Origin: Phoronis australis
Lineage: Eukaryota > Animalia > Phoronida
Assembly (NCBI GenBank): GCA_002633005.1
Contig: NMRA01000028.1
Span: 870,764-926,228 of the forward strand
Direction of reading: 5' to 3'
Length of the DNA: 55,465 bases
The position numbers and the translations under genes were made by a program. Shown piece after piece: positions 9,468 to 53,847 of the stretch (the stretch's first letter is position 1; the number at the start of each line of letters is the position of its first letter). Below the pieces are notes generated by a model. It did not search any database, was not told the origin of the DNA, and saw only the letters and a list, made by a program, of their open reading frames with translations.

Positions 9468-11902
9468 TACCTATTACGGTTCACGAGTTAAACGTGAACT
9501 TCATTCAAACGCTTAGAAATCTTTGTTTATGATCGCGAGTACTTTGAGTACCACTAAGTACCCCCCCCCCGGCGTTCGACATGTACACGGTCATAAATCG
9601 TAGCTGCCCGACAGTCTTTTCGACAGGTGCGAATTCCTTGCAAACAACTCCTAGAAACTATCTTTAAAAGAAATAATATTCTTGTGATATTATGGGGAAA
9701 AAGGTAACATTATTTTATAACTAACCATCGGTAACTTTTGGTTTTTAGAATAAAAATACTTTTAAACCAGTCATGTATGCGAAATGATATTTACTTATGT
9801 ATTAAATTGTTTATCTTTTGCTTCTGATATAATCATCAAAAACTGACAAAGGACTTTCTAATGATAAGGTTCTTATCGGGAAGGCAGGTAATGCCTTTAT
9901 GTTCTAATGCAATTCGGTTGAATAACGATGGAGTTGCGAAAAGTTTTAATGACAGTAAATTCCGTAGCAAGTGCACACACCGGAACGAACGAATGCAAAC
10001 AACTCTCACGCTTGCGCGGTACAGCTACCTCAAAGGCATCAGGGCTAAGTTCTGAGTCATACCACTCAATTCGTCAATTAATTTCCCATTTACAGATCTA
10101 AATCTAAAGGCTTGGAGAGTCGTATACAAACATCTCGAAAGCATTTAAGCCTACGACTTCAAGTTTACGTGACCAAAACCCGGCACAAAAGAACTGGCAA
10201 GTGAACATGTAAACAGTAACGCTACCTATTGGTGACTGTGAAAACAATTTAATCTTATCTCCCATAGAAAAACCAAACAAATTAAAAATGGCCGACGTCC
10301 CTGGAGTATATCATGAGGATTTGTTAAAGAACAATCGCTGATTTGTGATGAAAAGTAAGGCTCCGTGCAGTTATGTTCTTCGAGGCTTAAGTTTAACATC
10401 CTTTCATTTTCTTCTTCCGACAAACCGACCTTGTGGCTTAGATTTAACCCTTTTCGCCGTATATGATTCTGAATTTATGAAATCTTACGTGATCACCCAG
10501 TTCAGTCCAACTCCAAACCGGTCCCCGTCCAACCAAGGTCGAAAGTGTGATGATTATTCGCAATATCTCACAGTTTGAGTTATACAGGGTGGTTAACCTC
10601 ATGGAACTTGTCTTTTCATTGGCCCCAGATGTTGAGAACTAGTTTCCTGCGCGTTATTTACGTTTCAGTGGAAGAAATTAGAAATTGGTTCTCAAATTTG
10701 GGATCAGACAGTCGGGCACTGTGCCACTGTGTAAATGGTGAGCTTGTTCTGTTCAAACTGTTGTAAATAATTTCAATTTTTCGGGATCTACCAGCCGCTG
10801 CATTCCACTGACACGTTCGTTGGTGTTTGCAACTCGTTACACAAGTGGAGCACACTGAATATCCTTATTTACGTACATTTGGGCCGGGGGTTACTGGCCT
10901 GTAAAAGGGTAAAAGTGGAGTAAATGGGTCCCTCTTGAAAGTGGCTGCCGACAACCAGTTTTCACTGAATAATGGCAGTGTCCAATATTGTAGAGGGACC
11001 CGTTTACTCGACTTTTACCTGTGGAAGTCGAGTAGTCAGGTCCCTCTTGGAGTCTTGGGTAATGACCGATACTTCTTTGTGAAAACTGGTTCCCAGGCAT
11101 TATTGTGAAGAGAGACCCAGCTACTTAATATTACCTTAATGACCTTCTTCTGCTGAACAGTAATGAGTGAATAGTCAGTATCTTGACTAGATTTAGACTC
11201 ATAGTGACACGTGACTTCTGGATGTGACGTAGAGCTGCACAAAGCCTATCTAAATCCGAACAGTTTGGACGCTTGGCTGTCACACTGGAAACCCTGGTTC
11301 AAGTCTCTGTGTTGGCAAAATTTTCTACGTTGGGCCAAATTTTCTACAATACGTATGCTCTATACTGCACATTGCTGGGGGTCAGCAGAAGTGAACCACT
11401 GATTTGCACAGAATTTTATGTGGCATTAAATGATCTGACTTTAAACTATAGACTGAATCAAGTGACAAATTGATCAACAGTATTTGGGTCAGTATGTGAA
11501 TTTGCATTAAGATGTATAAACTGTAGTGGCTCAAAGAGAAAACGAGGTATTAAACTGTCTGTATTGCTATAACATTTTTTAAAAACAAATTAGCATCATT
11601 GTGTCACATGCACCAGGGTATGACAGCCCTGACAGTCATGAGTTAAATCACCTTGCAACATTGTTGTTAATAGTATCTGTATCACATCTTTCTGATAAGT
11701 GTTAACTCAATGCAACCCTTGACATTTGACTCCTTGTCTGACTGTACTACATACAATCAATGAACAATGTACCCTGCAATGTACATATACCAATGCATGC
11801 ATTTGCGCCTCATTATTGTTGAGCTTAGCTTATGGCAGTCATGTTAGGTAAATATGCATTTTTAGTCTGATTTAGGATAGATTTGCATTTACTGGTTTAA
11901 TT

Positions 11903-13088: not shown

Positions 13089-13405
13089 AATGCATTCAAT
13101 GATTAAAAAATTGCCCTCAAGACTGGACTCCTTTTAACTCTCGGAGACCTCTGTTGCAGAAGCTTTTATGCAAGTATAAAAATTCTACCATTATAGGACA
13201 TGCCTTACTACTCAGGAACCCGTAGTATTATAGCGTCGATGTGGAGAACTGAAAATGGTAAGTTTATCACAATTAATGGATGTTGCATACATTGCATAGA
13301 GAAACCAGCATGCTATTGTAGAAGACAAACTTTTTAAGGTTGGATTGTTTCATCAATATCAGTTCATTTCAGCTGGAGTCCATTGAAGCCATGCGATGCT
13401 GAGCT

Positions 13406-14740
13406 ATGAGTGCAAACAAGAAGATTGATCTGAACCAGGCCAATGTAGACCAACTGGAGTCGCTGAGGGGCATCGGACGGGCCAAGGCTGAGGCTATAGT
13501 GGAGACTAGGAAGGTAAGTGGCCAAGGCTGAGGTTGTAGTGGAGACTAGCAAGGTAAGGGGCCAAGGCTGAAGCTGTAATGGAGACTAAGAAGGTAAGGG
13601 ACCAAGGCTGAGGTTGTAGTGGAGACTAGGAAGGTAAGGGGCCCATGCTGAGATTGTGTTGACTAGGAAGGTAAGGAGCCAAGGCTGAGATAGTGTAGAC
13701 TAGGAAGGTAAGGGGCCAAGGCTGAGGTTGTAGTGGAGACTAGGATGGTAAGGGACCAAGGTTGAGGCTGTAGTGGGTACTAGTAGGGTAAGGGGCCAAG
13801 GCTGAGGTTGGAGTGGAGACTAGGAAGGTAAGGGGCCAAGGCTGAGATTGTGTAGACTAGGAAGGTAAGGAGACAAGGCTGAGGTTGTAGTGGAGACTAG
13901 GATGCTAAGGGACCAAGGCTGAGGCTGTTGTGGCTACTAGGAGGCTAAGGGGCCAAGGCAGAGGTTGTGGAAACTAGGAAGGTAAGGGGCCATGGCTGAG
14001 GTTGTAGTGAAGACGAGGAAGGTAAGGGGCCAAGGCTGAGGTTGTAGTGGAGACTAGGAAGGCCCCATCACTGTTCTCTATTGCTCTATATCACTATTCT
14101 ACTTGTGACTCTTAGTGCAACATCCTTGTGTTGTCAGTTACAATACTGACACAGACAATTAACTGGTGAATGATTCTTTTCTTGTTTGAACAGCCTTTTC
14201 AAAAACTTGGCCAGTCAAATGCATTGTTCTACCTCTGCAATAAGAGAGAGCTGAACTCAGTACTTGTCTGTTCCATTGTCTGTTAGTCGACTATTTTGTA
14301 AATGGCCTCTGCGGTTATCCTTCTGTATTCAAATATACCATCATCCATGTTCCCTACTTTGAAAGTGAGCCAAGTACAGTGTTTTTGCTGTAAATTTTAT
14401 GTCATTAATTTCACATGACCTTCTTGTCTATGTGTGTATTCAGTACTGATCAGTGAGCATCCGCATTATACAGTAAACTTGCCAATTTTCAGTTTAAGTA
14501 CCCGCTGCTTGGGTAATTGCGTCCTCCCCCCCCCCCGTCTCAGGGTTTCCCAATTTAACCTCCCATGGCATTAACCTGCGGGTTTATGGGGGGTGTTTAG
14601 AAAGCTTTATCTTTTGAGTTGAATTATAAATGTGGTCATCAAGTCTTCATGCGGAACACATTCTGATCTCAGTAGCATTGATTTGGCTCACCAATGCAAT
14701 AGTAATGGAAGAGTTTCTTGCTTTAGCAGTCACAATGGGT

Positions 14741-14771
<31 letters not shown>

Positions 14772-17700
14772 CAACTACGATATGATGATGATAATGACTG
14801 AGTGACTATGTGAGTGGTGATGAGGTCATGATGCTGGCATTGTGTGGTTAGTCAGACTGGGTTGAAATTATGGATGAAGCTGGCCAATTCCGTAAACTCG
14901 CGGGTCAACGCCCATGCAATTGCCCATCCCCGACTTTTGGTCAATTTTCGGTTTAAAGCACCCACTGCTTAGGTAATCGCCCACCCCCCTGCCAAAGGTT
15001 TTCCCAATTTAAGCACCCATGGCTTTAACCCGCGAGTTTACGGTATATAGTGACTATCTCTGCCTGTTGTGGGCTGCTGGGAATGTCTGCATTCTTGCCT
15101 TGTGTAAATACAACAGGACCACCAAGCACACTCCTAATGTAAGCATGGAAATAGGTGTCATGCACTTTATTGTTCCACAGAGGCCTTTGTTCAAATTAAA
15201 ATTCCAAAGGTCCCAAACCACTGAGGTCACAAGTCAACAAAAGACCAAAGCTGTGAGTGGACCATTATGGTGTACATTGGAGGAGTTTTATCTTCGATCC
15301 CCTGACCTAAACGCTTTTGTATGACTTGACTGTCAGAAAGTCAGGAATTCTTAGCTGGGGGCACTGCAGACTTCACTGAGGTTAGTGACTTTCTGGGTAA
15401 TATAGTTTTGGGTAGTTTTATCATAGGAAGTACGCTGTTGCTGGATGGGTCAGAACAGTGTGGCTTGGGTACTCCACAGACAATCCTATTTGTTAGATAA
15501 TGACAATGAGTTAGATAGGAGAGTGGGCTATACTGTGCTTGGTTGATAACATGTCAATTGTGTTATTGTGTGTATGGCTATTTGAATTAGGCCTTCTAAG
15601 AAGTTTGAAATCTCTGTAGGTCAGACCTCAATTGTTTTTTTATCTTACTAATGCTTGTCTGATAAGTAAGTTGAACATTGTTTCATTCATTGTAATGTGT
15701 GTATATGGCTTTGCTTACCAGAATTGACGCCTCATTGTTTTGGGGAGTGTCAGCCAGTAGGAACTGTTAACTTTGGTCTTGCTAAGTTAACATGGCAATA
15801 AATAGGTTGATGTAACAGCAGAGTGTAGTGACAATGGTTGTTTGAAGTCTCTTAGGAGTTGTCTCCATGTGTCACTGTCAAACCATATATGTTGTATTTT
15901 TATGTTTTGTTCAAATACTCATCATTCTACCTCTATGCTAAGTAAGTGCTTCATTTTATTTATTGTGCTATGCGAACATATTTGCAATTTATTTAAAAAC
16001 TTAAAATTCTGTGTGTATCAAGTCTTTGCAGCGCCACCTTGCGATAATTTCAATGGCTGAGTATCAACTAGGGATATTTTTGGTTTAATTAATTATTGAA
16101 CTGAATCGGGTTTGAAAGGTGCGACCTTCTCATATTGGAGTTAAGTTGGCATTAGAAAGATTTATTGACTCATGCTAACTATTGTGAGTCTCAGGAGCTG
16201 TATTTTGTCTTAGATCACTGCAGACATCGTCAGGGTATAAGAATGCAGTTATTAAGACCGCGTTAGTTGAAGGCATTTTCATATTGATAACTGTTAAAAT
16301 AAGGTTTAAGTGCATCAACAATGTCTTCAGGAATTAGTGATTATGGAGGAGGGTGGTTATGAAGAGGGGGGGGGACTGAAGATCATCAAAATCACTAGTC
16401 AGCCACTGTTGTACAGTAACTTTAATGTAAGACGTTTACTAATTTCTTAAAATGTGCCGGGGGTTAAAGTTTGATAACCCATACCAGTCCAAAGTGCTTA
16501 ATGTGGTGAGACTGTTTGCATTAATTACAACAACCCAGATGTCAACAACATCCTGTCAATTCTTTTTGGGAAAATTAACCTCAGAGCTCACCCACTGTCA
16601 AGGAAGAGAACCAGTAATAGTGATTCAGATTGACCAGTTCTCACTATCAATGGGCAAGGCTGTCAGTCTTTCTTTGGCTTAATTCACACAAGGACTTTAA
16701 CTTATGTAGGATGGTAGCACCCTAGAACAATGTCCAAATTTAGCTAACTGGAGTACATCATATCTCAGGAATGTTCATATGAAAGTTTCACATCGCAGCC
16801 CTCGTTCATCCGAGGGGAACAGTGTCTGTGCCTTTTGAGAGGGAAATTTGCGGTTAGGGGCAAATTCTACCTCCCGATCACCATCAATAGCACCCCACCC
16901 CTGTTGCAAGTCCTCATAGGCTCTGCCTCGAGTAGCCAAAACTAACATTTTGCGCCATTTCAAATTGTCACCTGTGTGAGTTATAAGTCATTTGAACCTC
17001 AAGGGGAATTTATCAATCGCTTGAGGGGAATTACCGGGCCTCATGAGGGGAATTTTGTGTGATTTTTCAGTGTTTTTCAGTGGGAAATGGGGCCACTATT
17101 TGGCCCCAAAATTGAGAAACTAAAGGCCCTGTACTTAGTGTGTGTTATGCACTGTTTTCTTAAAGTTAAAATCTTCCTGTTTTGCACCATGGGCTGTAAA
17201 AATTGAAGTTTGATGATTTTATGAACAGTCTCAAAAGTTGCACAAAATCAAATCATATGATAATTTCAGCATTTCTGAGATTTCATCATGAATAATTGTA
17301 TCAAATGAAATTTAGTTATGTTATTGATAAAGTTATTTTGCCAAGATCATATAATCGTACCATTTAAGGAAATTTTTGCTGTAAAAAACATGGTCACATG
17401 ATCCAATTACTGGTTGATTGATCAAATTCAAAATTAAAAATCTACAGGCTTTGTAGTTTCAGAAAATATATTATTTGATTTTCACTGATTGCTTTAGTCT
17501 TACAGATAGTTGATTATATGCATACATAGATCCTGCATAATCATAGTGTCATGTATAGCTCCATTGACTCCTTTCAGCAAAGCATTTATGCAGTTCTGTT
17601 TTAGCGAAATGCATATATTAAGCTTTTGTACTAAAAGGCTCATGGTTTTTAAACATGACTCAAAAAAGATGTTTGACATGTCTGTCAGGATGTTTGAAGC

Positions 17701-20700
17701 ATGGTCAAAACAGGAGTGTTCACCTACTGACAGAATGAGTTCTCTCAACAATCCTGGAATATTTAGTAAAATATTGACTTGCTATGAATAGTACTTTCAC
17801 CAATCTGGTAGGGTGCTAATATTTTCATCTACTATAATGAGGGTCACTAAGTGCAACTCGTTCAGCCATGCCCTTATATGCCTTACATGTGGTTATTTGG
17901 AGTTGACCAGATGTTCTGCATTTGATGCTGACGAGGTCAGATAGTTGAGGTTGCCTGCCCACAGTGGAGGATGGCCCGTGTTGACTGCTGTTGATATGAG
18001 ACTTGGCTGTGGTGTTAGGTGTGTAACCTTGGCATGAAGGTCAAGGACACGCCCCCTGTGAAGCACCTAGGAGGTCACTACTACCAAGAAATATGTTGTT
18101 GGTTATTTTACACAATATGATTCCCCAAATCATCTCTTCACTTTGTCACAGATTAACTATGCTGCCAACTATAAACAAGCCACCCTGCTAGATGTTTTCT
18201 AACCAGTCACCTAGCTGTGTATTAGCCAGCTTGCTGTATACTAGATAACCACAGTGTTCTCCACTACCTATTTTGACTCATCACTGCATAGAGTTTGAAT
18301 TTTGCTGTGACGAGTTTGGCTCACTTTTGTCGAGTTAAAAAAACCTGTACAACGAGTTTGAAATATAAGGAGTTTAGGCGTTGCCTAAGAAAATTAGGAC
18401 ATTTGGGCGTTTGGTACCACTTCAGTGCATTTATTTCAAATACCCGATAGTATAGACATTGATATGGAATACATGTACATGAATTTTGACATTTTGGTAG
18501 AGTTTGAATTTTCTGTTGTGGAGAACACTGAACCAGCCAGCTGTATACCAGCCAGCCAGCTAACTGAACAATAAATAGCCAGCCAGCTTTGTGGCAAATG
18601 TAATTTTTATGCGCCCACATATTTATATGTGGACGCATTTTGCCGTCATCTCCATCCGTCCGTCCGTCCATCCGTCTGTCCGTCCGGGTGGCGTCCGTCT
18701 GGTGTCCGCTGCTTTATCTCTAAAACCCTTTGACATACGTTCATGAAATTTGGCACATATGTTCCATTCATGAATGGGACGGCATGTGCGAACTTTCGGA
18801 CGGATCCGATTACCGGTGTGCCCCCTAGTGGCAATTTTAGTTTTTTACGCTTAACTTTGTATCTTCAAAAGTCCTGAACGGATTTTCATGAAATTTGGTA
18901 TGTAGGCGCCTATTAGTGAGATGACGCTATGCTCCCGTTTTCAGATGGATTCGACATAGTTTGCGCCACCTAGTGGCCATTTTTAGTGTTTTCGAGTCTG
19001 TTTTTGTGCATTCACCTCTCTATCAACCAAACCGCTCTAAGGATGATTGTGAAAATTGGCATGTATATGCTTACTATGGAGAGGACGGTTGACGATGATT
19101 TTCCGACGATTTCGACTACTGTGGCACCTCCTAGTGGCAGTTTTTTTTTTTGCGCCTATGGCTGTATCTCCTAAACCTTTCGCAGGATCTTTAAGAAATT
19201 ATGTAAGTATATTTATGTGATGTTAACAACGGAAGATGACGACTTTTGGACGGATCCGCCTACCAGTGTGCCCCCTAGTGGCAATTTTATTTTTTTACAT
19301 TTACCTCTGTATCTTCACAAGTCCTTAACGGATTTTCATGAAATTTGGTTTGTAGGCACCTATTAGTGCGATGACGCTATCCTCCCATTTCGGATGGATT
19401 CGACCTAGTTTGCGACACCCTGTGGCCATTTATACTGTTTTTGAGTCTGTTTTTTGGCGTCCACCCCTCTATCAACCAAACCGCTCTAAGTATGATTGTG
19501 AAAATTGGCATGTATGTTCTTACTATGAAGAGGACGGTTGACGCTGAATTTCCCATGACTTTGATTACTGTGGCGCCTCCTAGTGGCAGTTTTTTTTTGC
19601 ACCCATGGCTGTATCTCCCAAACCTTTTGCAGGATCTTTACTAAATTTAGCAAGTGTATTTATGTGATGTTGACAACGGACGATGACGACTTTAGGATGA
19701 TTCTGACTACCGGTATGCCTCTAGTGGCAATTAAGTATTTTACATTGACCTCTGTATTTTCATAGGTCTTCAGGTGTATACCTTGTGTTACTTAGTGACT
19801 ATGAAGGAAAAGTTCCAAGTAGAAATTTGTTTCTGGCATTCTAATGCTGTGCTAATCTCGTATGTTGGTAAATTGTTTTTTAATTCTATGTTTCTGTGGT
19901 GCTTTAAGCAACTGATGTATAGGATGTGCTTGTATTATGAAGATCACTCACATTTTGCCCCTGGCCTATTGAGGAGACAATGACCATGCCTTTCCATTTT
20001 GCAAAGTACAACATACTACATATATGCCCTCTACTGGCCACTTTATGGTACCAATAAAGAAGGATACCGTATACGGTGCAATTGTGGGCGCATTTCAACG
20101 CTCTGCGTTGCTCTTGTTATGTTTGCCTCCGTTCCGTTATGTTGGCAGACAACTATCTGTTATGAAGGCGACAGTACATTTCTGTTTTGGAATGTATTTG
20201 TCAGATTTTACGCCACCTAATGGCCATTTTAATTATGTATACGTCAAACCCCTCAGAGTATCATTAATGGAAATTGGCAGATGTGTTCCTACTAACAAAG
20301 AGCCCAACTGACATGGATTTTCAGATGGATCCAACTACTACGGTGCCCCCTAGTGACATTTTTGCATCTGTGGCTGTATCTTCTTAACCCCTTTGCAAGA
20401 CCACAATTTGGCGTATTCCTTTTAACTTGTCAACAGATGGACGGATTCGATTACTGCTGTGCCTCTTAATGACAATTTGTTTTTTACGTTTTACTCGGTA
20501 TCTTTGGAGTTCCTTGATGGATTGTCATTAAATTTTGTTAATAATTTTGTATTAGAAAAACAACGATGCCCTCTCAACCCCAGAGGCAGTTGACGTATTC
20601 TGTGCCACCTATTGGCCATTTTACTGATAAAGCTACTGTAGAAACACACACTTTGCGATACAGTCGTGGGTGCATTTCAACGCTCCCTGTTGCTCTTGTT

Positions 20701-23700
20701 CAACTTTGCCCCATAGTTTATATACTGGCACGTTAAGCTTAATGTTTCTTGAATCTTGAATATAAATGAATGCTGAAATTACCATTCTTCTCATTTTTGA
20801 TTAACTGATTTTGGTAGTTTGATGAAAAAATGGAAAAACTGTATTCAAAGCTAGTTTTCTTTTTGTTGAGAAAATTGGTGTAAGTGTATTTTTCTGTCCG
20901 TTTAGAATTTGAAGAAGTTTTATTGTACTATTATATCTGTGTCTGTGGCATGCAGGAAGATTGTCATGAGGAAACAATATTGTCTGTGTGAGCCATGCTT
21001 GTTGGAATTAGGCCCTGGATAAACCCTGATTATGTCACAGCACAACGACTACTTTAGTATGTAGGCCATGTATTTGGGTGCATGAGATAGAAGTGTTTTG
21101 TGTGACACCTTGAAAGGCGATGGCTTTCATGGGAAACTGAAACTAAACAGTCTTTTGTCTTGCTAATTAGTTTCATATTGATTGAGGTTTCCCCAACTTC
21201 ATTTTTTTCCGTATTTCTCTCTTTTCTGAGATGCATTATGAAGTGTAGGAGTATTTTTCCTTTCTTTTTAAACTGTTTACTTCATTGCACAGACAGTACA
21301 GAAAATAATACACTTCCCCACGCAAGGAAGGTGTGTTAACACACTACTGTGCTTTGTTGGTATTTGTCATCATGACAGGTATTCCAGTCTATTTACAGTC
21401 ATTTTTTTCAATAGTTTACCTGGGCTCTTTTGTTGGTGCATTACAGAAACTGGGTGGGTTCAGTTGCCTGAGTGACCTCATGAAAGTGCCTGGCATTGGC
21501 CCTGGAGTTCTAGACCAGAATAGGACCTGTTTCAACTGTTTACCTGTACAGAGTAGAAAGTCACCACGGAAATGTGAAAGGTTTGTGAGTTCAACTTTCC
21601 TGTTCTATAACACGCCCGCGTTAACAAAGTCTTGATGAGGCATGTGGCTGTCGTGATGTTCACTTCCTGTTAATTAGATAGTTCATGCTTCTAGTGAACG
21701 TCGTGTTTCCTTGGCATAATAATCCAAAAAAAGATCATCATGATTCACATCATGTCTCAACTGATTCGTTTGAAAGCCAAGTGCTTGGTTAGTCGTCTCT
21801 GTATATTGTTGCTTTATTTCTTCATGCAGTAATTAATGTTCAACGCTCTCTACTGGGATTAGATGTATGTACAAGGGCTTGACTGTGTTTGTAGAGAAAC
21901 CAGGAGTAGTATTGGCTCTACATCACGTCATGATGGCTCACCTGACATCGTCGAGTGTTCCCCGATAAAACGTAGTCTGAGGGGACAAGCTGAGGGGCCC
22001 ACCTGCTCGTCAAGTAGTGCAGAGGACACTGTAAACCCAGGTCCAGTCCTGGATGGTGGTGTTGCCATGGAAACTAGCCACCCCATGGATGCGGGTGTCA
22101 GTATTGATAGTGGGGGTCAGAATGAAGAGTCGGGTGCTAGCACTGGTCAAGACAGTGACAGTGACGATAGCTCGGAAGAGAGGAGCCACTCCCCGTTTAC
22201 AATACGCTCGCGAATCCCAGTTAGGGATGAGCCACCTCTGTGGATGCAGGTTTGTGCTGCTCTTTCTGTATTCTTGTTCTCATCATATTAACATAGTCTT
22301 TTTAGTTGCCTGTTGTCTTTTTTATTTCAAGAAATTGAAATTTCTGCCTGATAATTCTGGCAATTTTTATTTGTAATGTGCGAGTCATTAGATCAAGTCT
22401 ATGCTTCACCATGATAACTGTTGGTCTGAGTAAATGAGTTGCACTGGGACGATGATCTTATTTGTCGGTAACCCTTTCGCTAGCAGCACAAACACCAGTG
22501 CATTAAGATATCACCAAGTTTGGACAAAAATAATTAACAAAATTACATTTTTTTTCATTTTTCAATGGATTCTAACATTGTTGTGAATGTCTACAGTTTT
22601 TCAATATATTGTCTGTTGGTAGCTGTGATATATAGAACTTAGATGTGCCACAGTATTACATATCATGTGTGAAAAAATAATATAAATTTCACCTTTCCAC
22701 CATATTGTGTCCTAAATTCGTGAGATTTTTACCGTAATTTGTATGTGATTAGACTCACTGGGTCATTGTCACTGGCTACTGCTTGCATTTGTATGTGAGT
22801 AGACTCACTGGGTCATTGTCACTGGCTACTGCTTGTATTTGTATGTGAGTAGACTCACTGGGTCATTGTCACTGGCTACTGCTTGCATTTGTATGTGAGT
22901 AGACTCATTAGGTCATTGTCACTGGCTACTGCTTGCATTTGTATGTGAGTAGACTCACTGGGTCATTGTCACTGGCTACTACTTGCATTTGTATGTGAGT
23001 TGACTCATTAGGTCATTGTCACTGGCTACTGCTTGCATTTGTATGTGAGTAGACTCATTAGATCATTGTCACTGACTACTGCTTGCATTTTCTCCTTTTC
23101 TCTAGCCTAGCTCTGTTACAGCCTGACAGCATACTTCAAAAGCACTCATGACTAGTTACTTGTAAAGTGTACCATTGTTTACCATTGCGGTAACAATGTT
23201 ATTGCAGACTGAATCTGATTTCATTCTAATTTCCACTTTGAAACAATATGGGTATGTTAAAATCTCCCCAATTTAAGACCCATGTATGGCTGACAAGCGA
23301 AATCTTTATTATCTCATTTTTTTCCATGAAAGATATAAAGCACCATATTAGTGCTTTCAAGGTCAAGTTGCATACCAGAGCTACCGTCAAACATCGTCTT
23401 GAAATATTTTCGGCATTCAAAACAATTTAAGAAGCCCTTGAAAAATGAGAAAAGGACAATTTTATTAATTATTTTGTCCAAAATAGGTGATATTTTGCCA
23501 TAGTGGGAAAACACATGTGTCTGGGTAAAGTGCTTGTGTCTTTACCACTCATGCCAGTTGTAGGCAGTAATAATGAACTTGTTTACAGCTTGTGTCTTTA
23601 CCACTCATGCCAGTTGTAGGCAGTAATAATGAACTTGTTTACAGCTTGTGTCTTTACCACTCATGCCAGTTGTAGGCAGTAATAATGAACTTGTTTACAG

Positions 23701-26700
23701 CTTGTGTCTTTTCTGTGGCTGTTCTCCAGACTAAAAGGGTGTGGTGAATTAATGATGTAGGCGTTGTTTGTAATGTGCATTAGTCGTTGAGCCATGGCAA
23801 AATACAAAAGTTTTTAACAGGTTAAAAGTAAATTATTATTTACATATAATTTAGTTGTGGCATGGTGTCGGTCTTCTTTTGTTAAAACAAAACTGATGAT
23901 TGAACTTAGCAGACTTCCATTTCTAATGACTTGGGCTCTCGAATGAAGTGTGGTGAGCATTTTTCAGCCAAAACTGAATTTTCTTCATTCTGAAGATTTG
24001 GACATGGATGATTTTGTCAGTAATCATGTTTCTCAAATATTCAACACTATGTTTTGTGAAGTCTTGAATACAGACTTAACAGGTCTTCAAATTATTGAAA
24101 ATAGCTGCCAGTGCTACATTTTCATGTTTGCGTAACAGGCATTTATGATAATTTCTGTTGATCGTAATTCTTGAATTTGTTCCTAAAATTAGATGCAAGC
24201 TATGATCTGGTGCAAAACAATTAATTTTTCTCTGTCCCAAACTGTAGAATTTTTAACGTAGCCTTTGTTATGGATACAGAACTTGCAATTTACATCAGCA
24301 CGGCAGCTTGGGCATGCTGGCAAGTATTTGGTGAACATTCTCTTCAGAAAACTCACTGTGTGAAGGTCGAAATGAATTTTGTTGACACGGCGTAGGGCAA
24401 TGATTTAATACTACTGTACTTTTGACTGTGTTTGTCATCAAAATACTGTGGTTCAGTTGAACAACATGCATTACTTTAATGCTGTGTTGAACTCGTGTCA
24501 TGTTTGGGTACAATGAGCTGTGTTGAATTCGTGTCATGTTTGGGTACAATGAGCTGTGTTGCTGTTTCAGATGAATCTTATGAAGCGTAAGTCGGAGAGT
24601 GGCTTTGAGTCGAGAGATATTCCTGGCAAGAGGCTCTGTCGCTGCTCAGCCTCTGATCTCGCTCACTGGTAACTACATGTTTATTGTATCAGTAGATAAG
24701 TATTTAAATAAAGAGAAACATGTCTTGATATGAGTGTTATTAAATGCTAATGCATGAGATTACCATTTTGATGCTAATTCTTGTTGGCTACCGCTTGAGG
24801 TAGCAGTCATTTGTCTTGAGTGTACGCATCAGTTGCTATTGGAAGAGTCCCTGAGTATCACGTTTTGAGGTCACTTGCCACTTTATTTTTGAGAGGTGCG
24901 TGATGTTCTTATTGTTTTGTTTGTGTGCGTAATGATGATGACCCTGTGATAAAGTAATTATTTAGAGTAGACAATACATAAGTAACACATGAAAAACAAA
25001 CTAAAATAAAATATCTTGTATTTTATTTATTTCTTTGTAATATTTCGAAGACGTGTTGTTATCATCTGACTTGATATTTTAGCTGTTTTGTCAAGCCAAC
25101 CTTGTCTGACCGAGGCCTCTTGCTGGCTTAGGCATTATGGTTAATTGACTAGTGACATAATTGTGACTAGTGTTATCCATGTTTGTGACTAGTGTTTTCC
25201 AAGTTTGTGAGTAGTGTTATCCACGATTGTGACTATTCATAGTGAGACGAACACAGGATGCATCAAGCTGACCCCCACCTGTATCAGGCGAAGGATACCA
25301 TCAAAAGATAACCCACCGCCCGGCCTGCACCAATGGCTGCAAACATTTCAGGTAATAGTCACACCACCTAGACATGATGTGAGGCAACAGCTTCTCATCT
25401 GAATTTCTGTGTGTTTTCAGAATTTGTTCCCTTGGTAGGCAATAGTCAGATGTAACATGCCCACATTTTGAGAACCAGTTTGATGCCTGTTATTCATTGG
25501 AGAATATTGATTCTCAATATGCAGGCATGTTATATCCGACTATTGTCCCTTTGTATCCGGTAACATGTTTTGATTTTGGTGGGGTTTGTTTTAAAATTTG
25601 CGTGGTTGGATTGTATGGAAAGACATTGTCTACTGTGTGAAAATAGTAGAATAACATTTTTCCTCCCTCACTTTTGCTAAGCACTTCTTAGTGGTGTTGA
25701 CTGGTTGGTTGAGTGACATCTATGTGTTGTAAGGCAATAAAAAATACTGCTGCCTCCATTAACCTTGTTCAAAAGTCTCCCAAACGTGAACTGCTGTGCA
25801 TCACACAGAAGTGGTGATATTTAACTACCACCTAGACAGACACATATAAGTGTCATCTAGGGCACTCAACAGAATTGAAGTTGTTACTATGTATTTATGT
25901 TTTGTCTTTTATTCTGCCAAGTCCTATTTGTCAGTTGAAGGTCACGTGACTTGTTCTATCTTCATTAGCCATTGGCTACACCTGTTGATAAAGGTGATGC
26001 ACTGTTCCTATGAATTGGTACATGAAAACTACTGTCAATTTTGGCAGGTGGCAAACTTCAATGTTCAGTCATACCATCATTGCATGTTCATCGTCTGATT
26101 TTCCCTAGTATTTAGTGAATAAAAATCTTAAAGACCACCTTGATCAGATTTTTTTTTATTTCAGATGTTTAGGCTACATAGATAGTCCCAGCAGTATTTC
26201 AACAACATTAAAAAACTTGATTTAATTAGCTTTCTGTGCCACATTGCATTACTGCGTTTGATTATTTATGGTTTTGGTGTGCTTAGAATGATGCTCAAGA
26301 CACATTGTAGCAAACAAATTGAAATGTGTTGTCGTTCAAAGTAGGCTTTAAACTTCATTATTTTACATTGTACTTTTGTAATAGACAGGTTGCAGCAGGT
26401 GTCATTTTGAACTCCATTTTGTGGAGAAATTGTGAACCAGTTGATGAAGCTTAATTTCATTAACAAACTTGTGTGGCTGTAATACATGTGAACAACCCGT
26501 ACAGTTCATGGGTTAGTTTTATCAAAGGTTGTATGCTGAGATGGTCTCGCATTTCATTAAGGTTGTTGATTGTGGAAATAAACTGAGTCGGAATCGGCAT
26601 TGCAAACTGCTAACGTTTCTGCAAAAACACAGCGTCGCGTTGTCCGTTTCGAGCTTACAATAGTCTTAGCTATGGCCTGTGTGATACCGCGACCTATTTC

Positions 26701-29700
26701 CAGGGCTGGAGTCATGCAGAGAGACTAGCAGCCCTAGATGACCTCATTAGCGTGTGCGAAGCAACTCAAGTGCGTCACATGATGGCCGTAATAGAACCTC
26801 AGTTTCAGAGAGACTTCATATCTTTACTTCCCAAAGAGGTGAGTATGTGCACCTGAAACAAGCACTTTTGATATACACCAACCCCTAAACTCCTCCTTGC
26901 ATTGCATAATTTGTATACTGAATAATGTTTCATTATTATTATTATTATGGCAACCCCTTAAAAGACATGGATGAATTGCATTTTCTTCCAAGTAGTTAAC
27001 ATAAAGTTATAAATCAAAGCAATACCCTTGAGATGCCAACAAGTAAGGATCGATATCACGATCGTTTGTTGTATATGGGAAGAAGAGATGAGTCATGGTG
27101 CATATTGTGGTTCCATCTTTATGGTCATCACACATTGAGCGTAGCACACTTGCACACTCCAGTCTGCATGAGCCTGACCTTTGACCTTTGACCCTGTTTC
27201 AGCTGGCACTGTACGTGCTGTCTTTCCTGGAACCACGTGACCTGCTGAAAGCTGCACAGACTTGTCAGTACTGGCGAACATTAGCGGAGGACAACTTACT
27301 GTGGCGAGAGAAATGTCGAGAGGAGGTTATTGACGACATACTCGTCTATGGACGAAAGAGGTCAAGATCATCGCCAATTGGTCGCAGTCCATGGAAGAGT
27401 CTATACATGCGGCAACATCAGATAGAGCAGAACTGGAGATCAGGCACAATACGCAGTCCAAAGGTTAGTATACTCATTCAATTCAGAGTGTGTCATTTAG
27501 GATGTATTGTAATTAATGTAGGATCCTTGGAAATGTCCAAATTCAGCTAATTTCGGAATGTATCTCGGTAATGGCTGATCAGATTTTATTGAAACTTTCA
27601 CTATGCTTTACACACTGTTCTCCATTTGTTTTTAAATGTTCTACTTTTGCATGAGGATCTATCAAAAATGGGACTTTTATGATTATCATGAAGAAACTCG
27701 AAAGTTGCACAAGAAAATGAAAATAATACTTTAGAACCCTATATAAGAGTGTCTTTGAGGTTTCATCTTGAACATTTATCAAATGCAATTTGGTTGTTAT
27801 GGATACCATTGTTTTGGCTACCATTCTATGTATCCTTTTTACTAAATCTTAGTAAAAAGACAAGGTCATGTAATCCAATCAACGGGCGATTAGTGAAGTC
27901 ACACATCAAATTCCATAGGCTCGTTTTTCAGAAAACGTCTACTTTTTGCGAGATAAAATTTAAAGTTTTTATAGATATTTGGCTAAATACATACTTGTCA
28001 ATAAAATCCAACATGACCATAAAGTAGTAGTGCCCTCACCTGTGTAGTAGCCAACTAAAGTAGCAGTACCCTAACCTTCTGTGTAGTAGCCAACTAAAGT
28101 AGCAGTACCCTTACCTTCTGCGTAATAGCCAACTACTGTAGTTATGTAGTACTCTTACCTTCTGTGTAATAGCCAACTAAAGTAGTAGTATCCTTACCTT
28201 CTGTGTAGTAGCCAACTAAAGTAGCAGTACCCTTACGTTCTGTGTAATAGCCAACTAAAGTAGCAGTACCCTCACCTTCTGTGTAATAGCCAGCTTTTGA
28301 TTTAGACTACTTATTGTTATAAAATCAATCTCATCTTGTTCCTTATGCGGATTAGAAATGATTCTCGATTTGAGTAAAACTGACATGTTCATTAAACTGC
28401 TTGTCACTGCGGGTTAGTTTCAGTTGCCAAGACTATATGGCCATCGGGGGAGATGCAGGCTATTTATTGTAACAAACATCACTTTAAACTAANGTGTAAT
28501 AGCCAACTAAAGTAGCAGTACCCTTACCTGTGTAATAGCCAACTAAAGTAGTAGTGCCCTCACCTGTGTAATAGCCAACTAAAGTAGTAGTGCCCTCACC
28601 TGCGTAATAGCCAACTAAAGTAACAGTACCCTTACCTTCTGTGTAATAGCCAACTAAAGTAGCAGTACCCTCACTTTCTGTGTAACAGCCAACTAAAGTA
28701 ACAGTACCCTAACCTTCTGTGTAGTAGCCAACTAAAGTAGCAGTACCCTTACCTTCTGCGTAATAGCCAACTACTGTAGTAGTACTCTTACCTTCTGTGT
28801 AATAGCCAACTAAAGTAGTAGTATCCTTACCTTCTGTGTAGTAGCCAACTAAAGTAGCAGTACCCTTACGTTCTGTGTAATAGCCAACTAAAGTAGCAGT
28901 ACCCTCACCTTCTGTGTAATAGCCAGCTTTTGATTTAGACTACTTATTGTTATAAAATCAATCTCATCTTGTTCCTTATGCGGATTAGAAATGATTCTCG
29001 ATTTGAGTAAAACTGACATGTTCATTAAACTGCTTGTCACTGCGGGTTAATTTCAGTTGCCAAGACTATATGGCCATCGGGGGAGATGCAGGCTATTTAT
29101 TGTAACAAACATCACTTTAAACTAAAGATAGGAAAGTTCTTACACTGCTTTGGAAGAGCAAATACGCCTGTGGAGAAAGTTGGTGTTTTTAACTGCATAA
29201 CTGCATAATGGTTTTATTTATGGATGTGCTCGACTTCATATATGTGTATGTATGGTTGTATTCAACGATTGCCTTCAGTAAATAACATCAAGCAAAAAGT
29301 CAGGAATTTCCTTGCATAATGAGAGTCTTTGTGCAAAGGATGTCATTTTTCACGATTTCCTAATTTTGCATGACCTCTTGTTTCCTGAAGATGGTATTTC
29401 TTCTTACAATGTTCAACAAAAGACTAGGTCTTATTAGCAAGTAGGTCAGTAATTGTGTTTTTTTTGCAGATTCTAAAAGGTCACGATGACCATGTCATCA
29501 CATGTCTAGAGTTCAGTGGAAGTAGAATAGTCAGTGGCAGTGATGACAATACACTCAAAGTATGGTCGGCCATCACGGGCAAGGTAAGTGTCACCATGGA
29601 TGGCTGCCATGGAATCATTTGTTCAAGTAGATGTTGGCCTGTTAAAAGTGAGTGGGTGGATTGCTGCTATGTGAACAGTTGTTCAAATAGATGTTGGCAT

Positions 29701-32700
29701 GTTAAAGGTGAGTGTCTGGGTAGATAGCTACTTTTTGAACAACTGTTCAAGTAGATGTTGTCCTTTAAGGGGCCATTAATAACCGTTTTTGACGATGCTC
29801 TTCCCAATTCTGTTACCTCCTTTTATTATGCGCCCTGGCTTCTGGCGTCCGCTGCTCTATCTCCAAAACCCTTTGACATACGTTCATGAAATTTGGCACA
29901 TATGTTCCATTCATGAATGGGACGGCATGTGCGAACTTTCGGACGGATCCGACTACCGGTGTGCCCCCTAGTGGCAATTTTAGTTTTTTACGCTTACCTT
30001 TGTATCTTCAAAAGTCCTGAACGGATTTTCATGAAATTTGGTATGTAGGCACCTAGTAGTGAGATGACGCTATCCTGCCGTTTTCGGATGGATTCGACAT
30101 AGTTTGCGCCACCTAGTGGCCATTTTTACTGTTTTCGAGTCTGTTTTTGTGCTTCCACCCCTCTATCAACCAAACCGCTCAAAGGATGATTGTGAAAATT
30201 GGCATGTATGTGCTTACTATGTAGAGGACGGTTGACGATGATTTTCCGACGATTTCGACTACTGTGGCGCCTCCTAGTGGCAGTTTTGTTTTTTTTGCGC
30301 CTATGGCTGTATCTCCTAAACCGTTCGCAGGATCTTTACGAAATTGTGTAAGTATATTTATATGATGTTAACAACGGAAGATGACGACTTTTGGACGGAT
30401 CCGACTACCGGTGTGCCCCCTAGTGGCAATTTTAATTTTTTTACGCTTACCTTTGTATCTTCACAAGTCCTTATTGGATTTTCATGAAATTTGGTATGTA
30501 GGCACCTATTAGTGAGATGACGCTATCCTCCCGTTTTCAGATGGATTCGACATAGTTTGCGCCACCTAGTGGCCATTTTTAGTGTTTTCGAGTCTGTTTT
30601 TGTGCGTCCACCCCTCTATCAACCAAACCGCTCAAAGGATGATTGTGAAAATTGGCATGTATATGCTTACTATGTAGAGGACGGTTGACGATGATTTTCC
30701 GACGATTTCGACTACTGTGGCGCCTCCTAGTGGCAGTTTTTTTTTTTTTGCGCCTATGGCTGTATCTCCTAAACCGTTCGCAGGATCTTTACGAAATTGT
30801 GTAAGTATATTTATATGATGTTAACAACGGAAGATGACGACTTTTGGACGGATCCGACTACCGGTGTGCCCCCTAGTGGCAATTTTAGTTTTTTACGCTT
30901 ACCTTTGTATCTTCAAAAGTCCTGAACGGATTTTCATGAAATTTGGTATGTAGGCACCTATTAGTGAGATGACGCTATCCTCCCGTTTTCAGATGGATTC
31001 GACATAGTTTGCGCCACCTAGTGGCCATTTTTACTGTTTTCGAGTCTGTATTTTTGGTCCACTCCTCTATCAACCAAACCGCTCAAAGGATGATTGTGAA
31101 AATTGGTGTGTATGTGCTTACTATATGGAAGACAGCTGACAATGATTTTCAGACGATTTGGACTTCTGTGGCGCCTCCTAGTGGCAGTTTTGTTTTTTTG
31201 CACCCATGGCTGTATCTCCCAAACCGTTTGCAGGATCTTTACTAAATTTAGCAAGTGTATTTATGTGATGTTGACAACGGACGATGACGACTTTAGGATG
31301 ATTCTGACTACCGGTATGTCTCTAGTGGCAATTTTAGTATTTGCCTCTAGTGGCAATTTTGGTATTTTACATTGACCTCTGTATTTTCATAGGTCTTCAG
31401 GTGTATACTTTGTGTTACTTCGTGACTATGAAGGAAAAGTTCCAAGTAGAAATTTGTTTCTGGCATTCTAATGCTGTGCTCGTATGTTGGTAAATTTGTT
31501 TTTAATTCTTTCTGTGGTGCTTTAAGCAACTGGTGTATAGGATGTGCTTGTATTATGAAGATTACTCACATTTTGCCCCTAGCCTATTGAGGAGACAATG
31601 ACCATGCCTTTCCATTTTGCAAAGTACAACATACTACATATATGCCCTCTACTGGCCACTTTATGGTACCAATAAACAACCCTAGAAGGATACCGTATGC
31701 GGTGCAATTGTGGGCGCATTTCAACGCTCTGCGTTGTTCTTGTTGTATATTCTGCTGTACTGTTTTAGCTTCAGTAGTCAGGTTCATTAGGTTAGTCTTA
31801 GTGTTCCTTGCATTATTCATTTTTATCACTTTGAATTTCACTCCCGTACCTGGAGTTTTTACTTATATCAGAACAGTTGTTGTTATAGTATACTTTGTAT
31901 TGGTTATTCATTATATCCACTGTGCGTCTGTGGTGAATTAAAAATACTTAGAACTCCTGACTATTCAAAAGTGATTCCAAGTGGTATTGCATTTTTCAAG
32001 TAATGCTGGTCCTAAAGTTTTCAAATCACTGTACTGATTAGAGTTGTAGGGAATTACCTTATTATAATGTTTGGTGATAATTATGCTGTTACGGATTATC
32101 AATCATAAACACAGGCTCTTTTTTATTACTAACTTAAAAGTGATGGTTTGGTTATTTAGTTTATTATGCTATGGTCACCATGTCTGAGATGTCCATTTGA
32201 TTGGTCAGTATGTAATCCTGAGTCATCCATTTCAGTGCTTGCGTACTCTAGTGGGTCACACAGGTGGTGTGTGGTCGTCGCAGATGTGTGGTCACACAAT
32301 AGTCAGCGGCTCCACTGACCGCACACTCAAGGTGTGGAATGCCGACACCGGTCAGTGTGTACATACCCTCTATGGTCATACGTCCACTGTCAGATGTATG
32401 CATCTTTACACGAGCAAGTAAGTTAGCTACAGTTACCTTTAATTAATGAATGCCACTTAATAACACTGTCATTCTTACATCTGCCAACTATACACCATCT
32501 CATCACCACCTTAAAGGGATTTTAGGAGGTTAAAATTTTGGACTTTTGAATTATCTTTGGTGAGAATAACTAATTTCTACACCTTGTTGATGTCATTTAA
32601 GGCTAAAGTCTGGACTCTGTTGTTTTCATCTTTGTATTGGAAGCGAGATAGTGAGCTGTGTTGCTTGTTCAATCCTGAACAATTGTCTTTACACAGTTTT

Positions 32701-34610
32701 GTATCCACTTTCAAATCATTTTTACCTTCATAATCTCCTGGACAAGTTGTGTACTAAGGCTGTAGATTGTAATTTAAAAAGATTAATAAAATTGCAAATT
32801 TAGTATGTCCATACTAAATTTACAAAAGTCAGTTGTGTTGATTTGTCATTGATGTGGAAGAAATGAAGAGGCTGTGAAATGTTTGTGCCTACCTCTTCAC
32901 CTGCCTCTTTAATAAACAGTCCTGTTTCATGGGTATGATTTCTTACTTTTTCAGAGTGGTTAGTGGGTCACGTGATGCCACTTTGCGCCTGTGGGACATC
33001 GATACAGGTCAGTGCCTGCACGTATTAATGGGCCATGTAGCAGCAGTCAGGTGCGTCCAGTACGATGGCCGGAGAGTAGTCAGTGGAGCCTACGACTACT
33101 CAGTCAAGATCTGGGACCCAGAGAGTGAGACATGCCTCCATACTCTGCAGGGACACACAAACAGGGTCTACTCACTACAGGTGGGCAGAAATTAATTAAT
33201 TTGCATTCAAATTTGCACAACTTACATGACATGGCTCTTTCTATGAGGGGTTACCAATGCAATGCTAATCAGGTCAAGCTTAAATCGCAAACTTGTAAAT
33301 GCAATAACTGCAGGTAGTGACAGTGATCTGTTTAGTCCAAGGTGTTATGGTGTGAAACTAGGAGCGCTAACGTGCTGGATTAAGAAAAAGAAACAAAGGG
33401 TTCCACCCAAAACATGAACTGAAACTATGGTTTTCTAACATGGCACTTTGTGGAGCTTGTAGTCATCATATCAAGTTTACACGATGATACAGGGGGTCAC
33501 GTCTTGTGTCATTGTTCAGTATAGGTGTTGAGTGGCATGAAATTCTTTGCCTTTCAGTTTGATGGTGTACACATAGTCAGTGGTTCACTGGACACATCCA
33601 TCCGTGTGTGGGATGTAGAGACAGGCAACTGTCTACATACACTTATAGGTCACCAGTCATTGACTAGTGGCATGGAGTTGAAGGACAATATACTGGTGTC
33701 TGGCAATGCTGACTCTACAGTGAAAGTGTGGGATATCAGGACAGGGCAGTGTCTACAGACATTACAAGGTAAGTATGATGAACTGTAGTGGGACCACAAT
33801 GTACGGGTGGTCGGATTATGCTGAACTGTTGTGGGACCACAATGTACTGTTGTCTGGAATATGATGAATTATGGTGGGAACACAATGTATTGTTGTCTGG
33901 AATATGATGAATTATGGTGGGAACACAATGTATTGTTGTCTGGAATATGATGAATTATGGTGGGAACACAATATACACATGTCTGACATTGTTCACTGTA
34001 TATTTAGTGAAGGTGTTTGAGATCTAGACAACACGGTGTCTAGAGACAGTACCAGGTAGGTATGATATACAGTAATGGGAACATAACTTAAATGATGGTA
34101 CATTTTAGTGTTGACTGAGCTAGAATTTGTGGGAAGTATGGCATTGTTAAACATTTCCTAAATAAAATCTCCTGTTGAAAGGTGTTTCGCTGTTCCTGGA
34201 TTTGACTAGTACCATATGCTTATAGTTACAAACAAACAAACGGTATCAGTATTGACATTTACAAATCGTACTACAGAACAGAATGGTGGGTCAGTTGTTA
34301 AGACTGCTGCTATTTCATTGCAGGCCCTAACAAACACCAGAGTGCTGTGACCTGCCTACAGTTCAACAAGAAGTTTGTGATCACGTCCAGCGATGATGGT
34401 ACGGTGAAGATCTGGGACCTAAAGACGGGCGACTTCCTACGTAACTTGGTGGCGCTGGATAGTGGGGGTAGTGGTGGCGTTGTGTGGAGGGTAAGGAGCA
34501 ATAACACCAAGCTTGTATGTGCAGTAGGGTCCCGCAATGGCACTGAGGAGACTAAGCTGCTTGTGTTGGACTTTGATGCAGAGGAGCCATTGAAGATCAG
34601 TAAAATATGA
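13406..34610 (+). CDS. FBXW7: F-box/WD repeat-containing protein 7 (SCF substrate receptor) with an N-terminal (HhH)2 extension; 12 coding exons, 739 aa
   Basis: Exons, all GT-AG with compatible phases, total 2220 nt: 13406-13513, 21447-21580, 21895-22249, 24571-24668, 25243-25351, 26704-26838, 27203-27463, 29470-29583, 32236-32417, 32955-33180, 33558-33768, 34324-34610. Translation includes MKRKSES (NLS-like start of the vertebrate common region), [28 protein letters not shown]...[16 protein letters not shown] (D-domain), [24 protein letters not shown] (F-box), and WD40 repeats [51 protein letters not shown], all closely matching FBXW7 as I know it. Exons 4-12 are near certain; the joining of exons 1-3 is inferred from phase. 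Confidence 0.95.
13480..14062 (+). repeat. 37-40-bp minisatellite, about 15 copies, derived from the FBXW7 first coding exon end plus donor site
   Basis: Unit GGCCAAGGCTGAGGTTGTAGTGGAGACTAGGAAGGTAAGG; the first copy is the exon end with GTAAGT. Confidence 0.92.
14742..14795. repeat. (GAT)n microsatellite
   Basis: Read directly. Confidence 0.9.
14890..15043. mobile_element. Tc1/pogo-type MITE; a deleted copy lies at 14471-14589
   Basis: Perfect 15-bp TIRs CCGTAAACTCGCGGG / CCCGCGAGTTTACGG, followed by TA on the right. Confidence 0.65.
18604..20118 (+). mobile_element. Non-autonomous Helentron/DINE-1-like element (HINE), copy 1, in an FBXW7 intron
   Basis: 5' T-run then hairpin GCGCCCACATA..TATGTGGACGC; (GTCC)n microsatellite; ~451-bp internal tandem units; 3' subterminal inverted repeat TGTGGGCGCAT, short hairpin CAACGC-TCT-GCGTTG, then CTCTTGTT. 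This is the DINE-1/HINE/pearl-type layout. Confidence 0.75.
20119..20700 (+). mobile_element. Older degenerate fragment of the same HINE family
   Basis: Diverged core boxes (GTGCCCCCTAGTGAC, GCCACCTATTGGCC) and a similar 3' end GTGGGTGCATTTCAACGCTCCCTGTTGCTCTTGTT. Confidence 0.55.
22737..23090. repeat. 50-bp minisatellite, about 7 copies
   Basis: Unit ATTTGTATGTGAGTAGACTCACTGGGTCATTGTCACTGGCTACTGCTTGC. Confidence 0.92.
23532..23711. repeat. 56-bp minisatellite, about 3.2 copies
   Basis: Unit GCTTGTGTCTTTACCACTCATGCCAGTTGTAGGCAGTAATAATGAACTTGTTTACA. Confidence 0.92.
28020..29125. repeat. 36-39-bp minisatellite in two blocks, with the ~200-bp unique flank duplicated around an N at 28493
   Basis: Unit TGTGTAATAGCCAACTAAAGTAGCAGTACCCTTACCTTC; 28290-28492 recurs almost identically at about 28925-29125. 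Confidence 0.9.
29821..31744 (+). mobile_element. HINE copy 2, with three ~452-bp units and lacking the 5' hairpin and microsatellite
   Basis: Highly similar to 18700-20118. Unit marker GGACGGATCCGACTACCGG recurs at 29941, 30393 and 30846; same 3' terminus at about 31709-31744. Confidence 0.75.
33772..33972. repeat. Degenerate ~38-bp minisatellite starting at an FBXW7 donor site
   Basis: Unit TATGATGAATTATGGTGGGAACACAATGTATTGTTGTCTGGAA, with variants. Confidence 0.8.
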
Positions 34611-38684: not shown

Positions 38685-51103
<12,419 letters not shown>

Positions 51104-53378: not shown

Positions 53379-53847
53379 GTGATTGTTACAGATTTGATTA
53401 TCTCTGTGTTACTCTGTTGGGTAACAAAATCTCTCATTGGTCACCTATTCTATTGTTTGACATCTTTTGAACGCCTTAGGGAGGTACTGCACCAGTTCTG
53501 CTTAGAGTTGCCTAATGCAATGCACTGCCATACTTATGCTGTCTTAAGCTGTGCTCGTGTTGGCCTACGTGGGATACTCAAGTGTTTTTGGAGACGAACA
53601 CTTGATGCAGAAAGTGGGCAGTTTTTGCATAAGCTTGCACTACTGTATGCCATGCTTAGGCAAATAGTATGCCATCCTGACCCAGTCCAACGAAAACACC
53701 AGGGTATGCCTGTGCAGCGTCATTTTTGTCATGAGTAGACAGTTGAATTTTGGCATGCTTCGTGCGTCGCTTTAGACAACTCTACTTAGGACCGATATGC
53801 ACATCCCTTTACTCTCCTAGTCGACTTGTTACAGCCAATTTCGTAAA

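Follow-up and report, generated by a model that had tools for sequence, protein, structure and literature searches.

A ComEA-type helix-hairpin-helix domain joined to FBXW7 in Phoronis australis: a candidate DNA tether and its traces in vertebrates

Few tumour-suppressor E3 receptors are studied as widely as FBXW7; its route to chromatin-bound substrates and the purpose of its isoform-specific N-termini are open questions. Human FBXW7 reaches DNA damage by binding of its WD40 domain to poly(ADP-ribose) (PAR) and by ATM phosphorylation (PMC6486556), and another paper treats the canonical Fbxw7 locus alone (PMC2446394). The double helix-hairpin-helix (HhH) domain of bacterial ComEA is the form without a linker helix (PMC9747964); DNA binding by the V. 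cholerae protein needs K63, aided by K62 and G60 (PMC3879209), and mutation of K63 or of its B. subtilis counterpart K164 abolishes it (PMC9747964, PMC3879209). The HhH of animal EEPD1 needs a dimer for DNA binding (PMC12988330). Here we describe an FBXW7 gene with a whole HhH domain of this type in 55,465 nucleotides of DNA from the phoronid Phoronis australis (assembly GCA_002633005.1, contig NMRA01000028.1, positions 870,764 to 926,228, forward strand). This stretch is referred to as the window, and positions follow its own numbering.

The FBXW7-HhH architecture is real, ancient and apparently undescribed. No description of an HhH in FBXW7 was found in the open literature, which was covered mostly as listings and with most subscription journals missing. 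The architecture sits in the automatic domain annotation of many records and has therefore been unnoticed rather than unseen. We consider it probable that the window holds FBXW7 in its ancestral form, carrying a ComEA-type HhH, predicted to bind double-stranded DNA (dsDNA), on a poorly conserved acidic linker, that its dimers would make a bivalent DNA tether for SCF, and that a later split left one HhH-bearing paralog and one gene with a remnant in its alpha exon.

The HhH domain and its junction to the FBXW7 core

The HhH domain is encoded in two successive exons. The first (13406-13513) matched positions 2-35 of the 65 in Pfam HHH_3 (E 1.6e-9, above the cut-off) and the second (21447-21580) positions 37-62 (E 9e-4), and they therefore supply complementary halves of the domain. 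The half in the first of them, which is exon 2 of the gene, also matched TIGR00426 (E 1.6e-5), for which the Owenia protein scored 57.4 bits against a cut-off of 53.1 and a turtle paralog 49.3 bits, below the cut-off. The F-box (PF12937, E 4.6e-13) and the WD40 propeller (PF00400) were both present, and three phosphodegron-pocket Arg motifs at model residues 488, 502 and 528 were the same as in PDB 7T1Y; we take them to be human R465, R479 and R505. A putative dimerisation domain (D-domain) ahead of the F-box was recognised by its match to canonical and invertebrate FBXW7. The FBXW7 core was 80-87% identical to those of relatives and fell in a spiralian clade (support 98/99) in a tree without other FBXW family members as outgroup. 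An initial annotation, made from the letters of the window alone, had read the gene as a ComEA/EEPD1-type module fused to FBXW7 and expected HMMER to find HHH_3, F-box and WD40, and the profile matches bear this out. ComEA itself was excluded, the gene being a spliced animal gene with F-box and WD40 and its TIGR01259 score far below the cut-off, as was EEPD1, which has two HhH and an EEP domain where the window has one HhH followed by D-domain, F-box and WD40.

Exons 13406-13513, 21447-21580, 21895-22249 and 24571-24668 are bounded by AG/GT and, joined in phase, yield the peptide given in the initial annotation. The 12-exon frame is open to 34610, giving 739 amino acids, as had been claimed, with the acceptor at 25243 or 724 with that at 25288. 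Spacing from MKRK to the D-domain is 53 residues in the longer form and 38 in the shorter, against 56-60 in three relatives, and the 739-residue model therefore fits better. RNA evidence came from about 18-19% of each of three runs of the same species label and from one contig of a fourth; the joints listed are 15 of 128. The reads differed from the window by several letters per 100 and therefore come from an individual other than the one sequenced. In-phase splicing over the 7.9-kb intron, another claim of the initial annotation, was observed in 22 reads with canonical ends at 13513^21447 (8, 5 and 9 in the three runs), and joints 10354^13373 (10, 5 and 13 reads) and 26838^27203 (9, 17 and 7 reads) were also recovered, all in RNA from the + strand. 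The single contig joins exons 10354, 13373-13513 and 21447. Since 10354 closes the non-coding exon, the start of the ATG exon lies at 13373; in-frame stops occur upstream of the ATG at 13406.

The three joints that lead from the HhH to the core count against this structure, as they were not among the 15 of 128 listed: the initial annotation had named 13513^21447, 21580^21895 and 22249^24571, of which only the first was seen; nor did the listed joints include any into 25243 or 26704. The HhH-to-MKRK joints therefore rest on exon depth and relatives. Between the first HhH exon and the F-box exon, both included, summed RNA depth stood at 30-37 on the six coding exons estimated, the 25243 exon being left out; the figure is rough and comes from bins taken to hold exon reads only. 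These depths suggest that the HhH-FBXW7 form is the main transcript at this locus and not, as first proposed, an unusual isoform. The model was also colinear with the Owenia protein over residues 4-270 (E 3e-45), which spans both 21580^21895 and 22249^24571. A chimeric gene model, in which the HhH exons form a short transcript of their own without a link to the FBXW7 core, would fit the two joints not listed, but the even depth, the in-phase exons, the colinearity with Owenia and the single transcript-like contigs of relatives leave it with almost no credibility.

The Owenia HhH domain was modelled by AlphaFold as a stand-in for that of the window and gave four helices and two hairpins without a linker helix (predicted local distance difference test 91.7). 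The top Foldseek match of this model was G. stearothermophilus ComEA (TM 0.88, rmsd 1.1), and the best PDB sequence matches were EEPD1 and ComEA, with the KIF22 HhH also matched. The first hairpin in the window is G22-I-G24, with K27 (13484-13486) and R35 after it, and G24, K27 and R35 occupy the DNA-contact positions G60, K63 and R71 of V. cholerae ComEA. The motif G-h-G-x-x-[KR]-A-x-x-[IV]-x-x-x-R was present in 111 of 112 whole FBXW7 HhH domains, its K/R position aligning with B. subtilis ComEA K164 (V. cholerae K63), and a basic patch follows the invertebrate domains (median +6 in 25 residues). The window HhH is predicted to bind the dsDNA backbone without sequence preference, and DNA tethering of FBXW7, as put forward in the initial annotation, is the natural hypothesis.

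Several observations weigh against DNA binding. The next Foldseek matches were PsbU, Tex and TEFM, and the fold thus also serves non-DNA roles. The position of V. cholerae ComEA K62 is Ala26 in the window, with Arg25 adjoining; the net charge of invertebrate HhH domains is modest (median +2, range -1 to +6); and in the vertebrate paralog Thr replaces the last Gly of hairpin 2 in 29 of 29. One report adds that the isolated HhH pair of human EEPD1 does not bind DNA and that XPF-ERCC1 and Mus81-Eme1 dimerise through the HhH fold (PMC12988330). The Tex, TEFM and PsbU matches and these EEPD1, XPF-ERCC1 and Mus81-Eme1 results would suit a genuine HhH fold whose ligand is structured RNA, PAR or a protein partner, the ligase being recruited or localised by other means. 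A special surface is also hinted at by the altered vertebrate hairpin and by Cys67, which is Cys in 69 of 70 relatives, with a Cys near the end in 3 of 30 outgroup HhH domains. We nevertheless regard a different ligand as unlikely, given that the ComEA contact Lys position and first hairpin are kept in all but one of the domains, that ComEA is the top fold match and that the basic patch follows in invertebrates.

The window linker was closest to that of the annelid Owenia. Its acidic exon, without a Pfam match, matched Owenia and Lingula just ahead of MKRK, and the basic MKRK exon presumably has a role like that of a nuclear localisation signal. The SRIP at 22208-22219 is common to Owenia, a chiton and bivalves, in each just before MKRK; it resembles SxIP, an EB-binding motif of microtubule plus-end trackers. 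S[RK]IP at most 60 residues before MKRK was found in 30 of 51 invertebrate sequences, a set with many near-identical oysters in which annelid, chiton and clam lineages share the motif, against a shuffle mean of 0.1. Together with the KIF22 match this would agree with a mitotic linker between chromosomes and microtubule ends, in which the HhH sits on chromosome arms as in that chromokinesin and SxIP binds EB proteins. However, the motif occurred in 0 of 55 vertebrate paralog sequences and in no heterobranch snail, echinoderm or Lingula sequence, and four-letter motifs have many readings, which makes such a linker improbable.

Distribution, vertebrate paralogs and the alpha exon

Relatives were collected by a search with the F-box exon. 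Among the best 120 of 606 matches, 56 had a whole HhH, six a part and 58 none; 42 of the latter were classed as canonical-type vertebrate and most others were fragments or started at or after MKRK. The initial annotation had suggested searching for the architecture among animal proteomes, and the named carriers belong to seven phyla (molluscs, a brachiopod, nemerteans, an annelid, echinoderms, a hemichordate and chordates). Several are Logan contigs, 2.4-5.6 kb long and free of introns, in which a whole protein of 700-820 amino acids is encoded; these must be spliced transcripts. A weak search with the second HhH exon alone gave no homolog among three candidates. When 1.84 billion proteins were searched with an HhH profile, the 150 multi-HhH proteins obtained all lacked an FBXW7 core, a result silent on cnidarians, sponges, arthropods and mammals. 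The ESM Atlas gave no new lineage: the whole protein led to ordinary FBXW7 clusters and the HhH domain mostly to bacterial HHH_3 clusters, with one EEPD1-like cluster.

The HhH tree placed 18 FBXW7 domains on one side of a branch and 30 top-scoring domains from other HhH proteins on the other (98/91), a pattern that fits a single fusion no later than the protostome-deuterostome split. HhH joined to FBXW7 is likely the ancestral bilaterian form. We know of no HhH domain in fly Ago, worm SEL-10 or yeast Cdc4. Against such an early origin stand the tree itself (64 columns, unsettled bootstrap, EEPD1 absent, outgroup chosen by a profile built from the ingroup), a set of full-length sequences that includes no non-bilaterian or ecdysozoan, and the Littorina and Batillaria models, which look full length and start like the abalone protein but have no HhH. 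The domain can therefore be lost; in these two caenogastropods an independent loss is likely, or else the models are incomplete. Bacterial contamination, against which the initial annotation had already argued, and recent transfer were rejected, as the gene is spliced, shares its intron position with birds and has its HhH on a single branch of the tree. Nor was a transposon-borne HhH supported, no such Pfam match occurring in the 11 and 95 window frames scanned, all of them outside the long intron.

Core trees from chosen subsets of 69, 27 and 24 rows, one run by a quick method, contained two gnathostome FBXW7 clades, each supported at 100/99, with hagfish in no settled place. The canonical clade included ray, coelacanth, frog, bird, gar, medaka, hamster and bat, and the other clade was HhH-bearing. 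Carettochelys and Pogona occurred in both (86% core identity), and the canonical turtle and hamster cores were 99.8% identical. Contrary to the initial annotation, which knew of no HhH in vertebrate FBXW7, a gnathostome paralog thus keeps the domain, and the canonical alpha form appears to carry a remnant of it. A turtle HhH query matched 44 proteins from turtles, birds, squamates, a caecilian, a newt and lungfish; no mammal or teleost was named among them, a weak absence with three proteins unnamed and a word-based search. Shark, ray and alligator paralogs with the HhH were found by other searches. The paralog is annotated only as 'FBXW7-like' or mislabelled RRP8: many bird records named 'ribosomal RNA-processing protein 8' are read-through models that splice RRP8 into the second HhH exon, and the gene is therefore hidden among RRP8 isoforms. 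We assume that the human RRP8 neighbourhood is paralogous to that of FBXW7, which would make the pair whole-genome-duplication ohnologs. In the paralog linker a conserved Tyr/Trp-rich segment, a possible binding motif, replaces the invertebrate SRIP just before MKRK (15 of 15 named sequences printed).

HhH domains were 44-78% identical and linkers 21-43%, the HhH being higher in 13 of 13 pairs; between lungfish and gull the values were 78% and 43%. This conservation bears on whether the HhH, having bound DNA once, today plays an accessory part and hardly affects substrate choice, serving for example only nuclear retention or protein stability. Its loss or decay in canonical vertebrate FBXW7, its apparent loss in two caenogastropods and the lack of a mammal or teleost copy among the 44 matches would accord with that, but conservation well above the linker in every pair makes it very improbable.

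Both the bird RRP8 chimeras and P0150, a record that retains the intron, are interrupted at the residue corresponding to the 13513^21447 intron, and we infer that the HhH-internal intron position is common to birds and canonical vertebrate FBXW7. Long canonical models (one parrot and ten teleost records, related to each other and not independent) have 23 residues ahead of the alpha start Met; these are database records whose translation is predicted. Together with the opening residues of alpha, these 23 give a gap-free alignment with the second half of the HhH, for which hhalign gave E 2e-4 against the HhH paralog and 2e-3 against invertebrates. In all 11 long models the in-register 31-mer ranked first among 423-847 windows and above 5000 of 5000 shuffles, and their alternative 5' ends diverge at the aligned intron position. 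The remnant lacks the hairpin glycines, and the hamster canonical isoform begins at the alpha Met. The long canonical isoforms also have a Cys-rich exon upstream, which hhalign did not align with the first HhH half, and we therefore restrict the remnant to the second half. The in-register match, the intron position and the gap-free alignment indicate that the alpha exon most likely derives from the second HhH exon plus the acidic exon. Canonical vertebrate FBXW7 is thus likely to keep a decayed half of the domain.

Exon structure, leader and neighbouring genes

The exons of the FBXW7 model are listed in Table 1. A 40-bp minisatellite at 13479-14062 (about 15 copies) repeats the 35 nt at the 3' end of the first HhH exon together with its splice donor and creates many decoy donors, of which the listed RNA joint uses the first; further repeat arrays lie at exon edges (24481-24561 and 33774-33976). 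The spliced leader (10288-10354, 13373-13405) has upstream ATGs at 10288, 10313, 10348, 13391 and 13396. An in-frame upstream open reading frame (uORF) of three codons ends 3 nt before the main ATG and a second overlaps it out of frame; such uORFs may allow translational control. An intronic segment at 18272-20272 had + strand RNA depth of 340-850 with many mismatches and loose ends, likely a repeat found in many other transcripts. Downstream of FBXW7, at about 38688-51142 on the - strand, is a convergent gene for an AFG2A/SPATA5-type AAA ATPase. Head to head with it is a + strand frame (53208-53738) without a Pfam match, which by eye we take to resemble the start of an RBM26/27-type gene.

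Table 1. Features of the FBXW7 gene model in the window.
Feature	Position	Strand	Evidence
Non-coding first exon	10292..10354	+	Joint 10354^13373 in 28 reads; contig with 63 letters on exon side; 5' end not mapped
Exon 2, coding from 13406, first HhH motif	13373..13513	+	HHH_3 and TIGR00426 matches; both joints in RNA
Phase-0 intron, 7,933 nt, within HhH domain	13514..21446	+	22 joint reads
Exon 3, second HhH motif, conserved Cys67, basic patch	21447..21580	+	HHH_3 37-62; Cys in 69/70 relatives
Exon 4, acidic Ser-rich linker, SRIP at 22208-22219	21895..22249	+	Open, in phase; RNA depth; Owenia/Lingula match
Exon 5, MKRK exon, basic	24571..24668	+	tblastn matches to relatives; RNA depth
Exon 6, putative dimerisation domain start	25243..25351	+	Relatives' spacing and match; acceptor 25288 likewise in frame
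Exon 7, putative dimerisation domain into F-box	26704..26838	+	Open frame; joint to 27203 in 33 reads
Exon 8, F-box	27203..27463	+	PF12937 E 4.6e-13
Exon 9, WD40	29470..29583	+	Open frame
Exon 10, WD40, first pocket Arg motif	32236..32417	+	Open frame; motif match
Exon 11, WD40, second and third pocket Arg motifs	32955..33180	+	PF00400 E 1e-17
Exon 12, WD40	33558..33768	+	Open frame
Last coding exon, WD40 and stop	34324..34610	+	PF00400 E 5.8e-9; open frame

Proposed mechanism and comparison with known systems

FBXW7 reportedly dimerises through the domain ahead of its F-box. In the mechanism we propose, the HhH would contact dsDNA through K27 and the hairpin amides, like ComEA. A single module would bind weakly, and the D-domain dimer would bring two together for avidity, as in EEPD1 and in ComEA, which binds DNA cooperatively through oligomerisation. 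From the dimer need of EEPD1, the oligomerisation of ComEA and the D-domain dimer of FBXW7 we infer a bivalent tether that is independent of sequence. It would concentrate SCF where DNA is exposed, in open chromatin or at promoters, forks or breaks, and the WD40 propeller would still select phosphodegron substrates, so that DNA-bound ones would be favoured. Human recruitment works through PAR and ATM, and a damage role of the HhH is therefore possible and not required. After a duplication before the shark/bony fish split, one copy would have retained the HhH domain and the other would have lost its first half and hairpin, a Met within the old last helix becoming the new start of the alpha isoform.

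FBXW7 was probably once a DNA-tethered protein-destruction adaptor. More tentatively, and at somewhat less than even chances, the ligase receptor of the bilaterian ancestor may have destroyed DNA-bound transcription factors or repair proteins in place, human alpha may be an amputated form reliant on PAR and ATM, and a second, DNA-binding FBXW7 may operate in sharks, lungfish, amphibians, reptiles and birds, mammals and teleosts having lost it. The remnant would explain the origin of the alpha exon and of its start codon. Knock-outs of FBXW7 in non-mammalian vertebrates may be masked by the paralog hidden under RRP8 models. The ancestral HhH, the alpha-exon remnant and the intact bird and reptile paralog make direct tests easy.

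Of the described systems, vertebrate FBXW7 (PDB 7T1Y, 2OVP) shares the core, which is about 81-82% identical to canonical fish proteins, the intact pocket Arg motifs and an acidic linker before the MKRK exon. The window gene differs by its whole HhH, of which the canonical gene retains just the second half, without its hairpin, ahead of the alpha Met, and no DNA-binding domain is reported for the human protein in the accessible part of PMC6486556. The gnathostome paralog beside RRP8 (XP_043928861.1 lungfish, XP_059579679.1 alligator, XP_051647103.1 manakin), known only from automatic annotation and often merged into RRP8 models, has the same architecture, the same intron position within the HhH and an MKRKSE-type exon start, but it is one of two duplicates, its HhH is more basic (median +6), its second hairpin ends in Thr and it has no SRIP. 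ComEA (HHH_3, TIGR00426; PDB 8DSS, 8DFK, 2DUY) has the same linker-less four-helix double HhH (TM 0.88), first hairpin, K63/K164 and R71 positions and an oligomerisation domain nearby; unlike it, the window gene is spliced, has no membrane anchor or signal peptide, is fused to an E3 receptor and has Ala at K62. EEPD1 (PDB 9YI2), the top whole-sequence PDB match (first domain 52.8 bits), likewise combines an N-terminal HhH with flexible linkers in an obligate dimer, but each of its chains carries two HhH modules and an EEP domain where the window has one module, an F-box and WD40 repeats.

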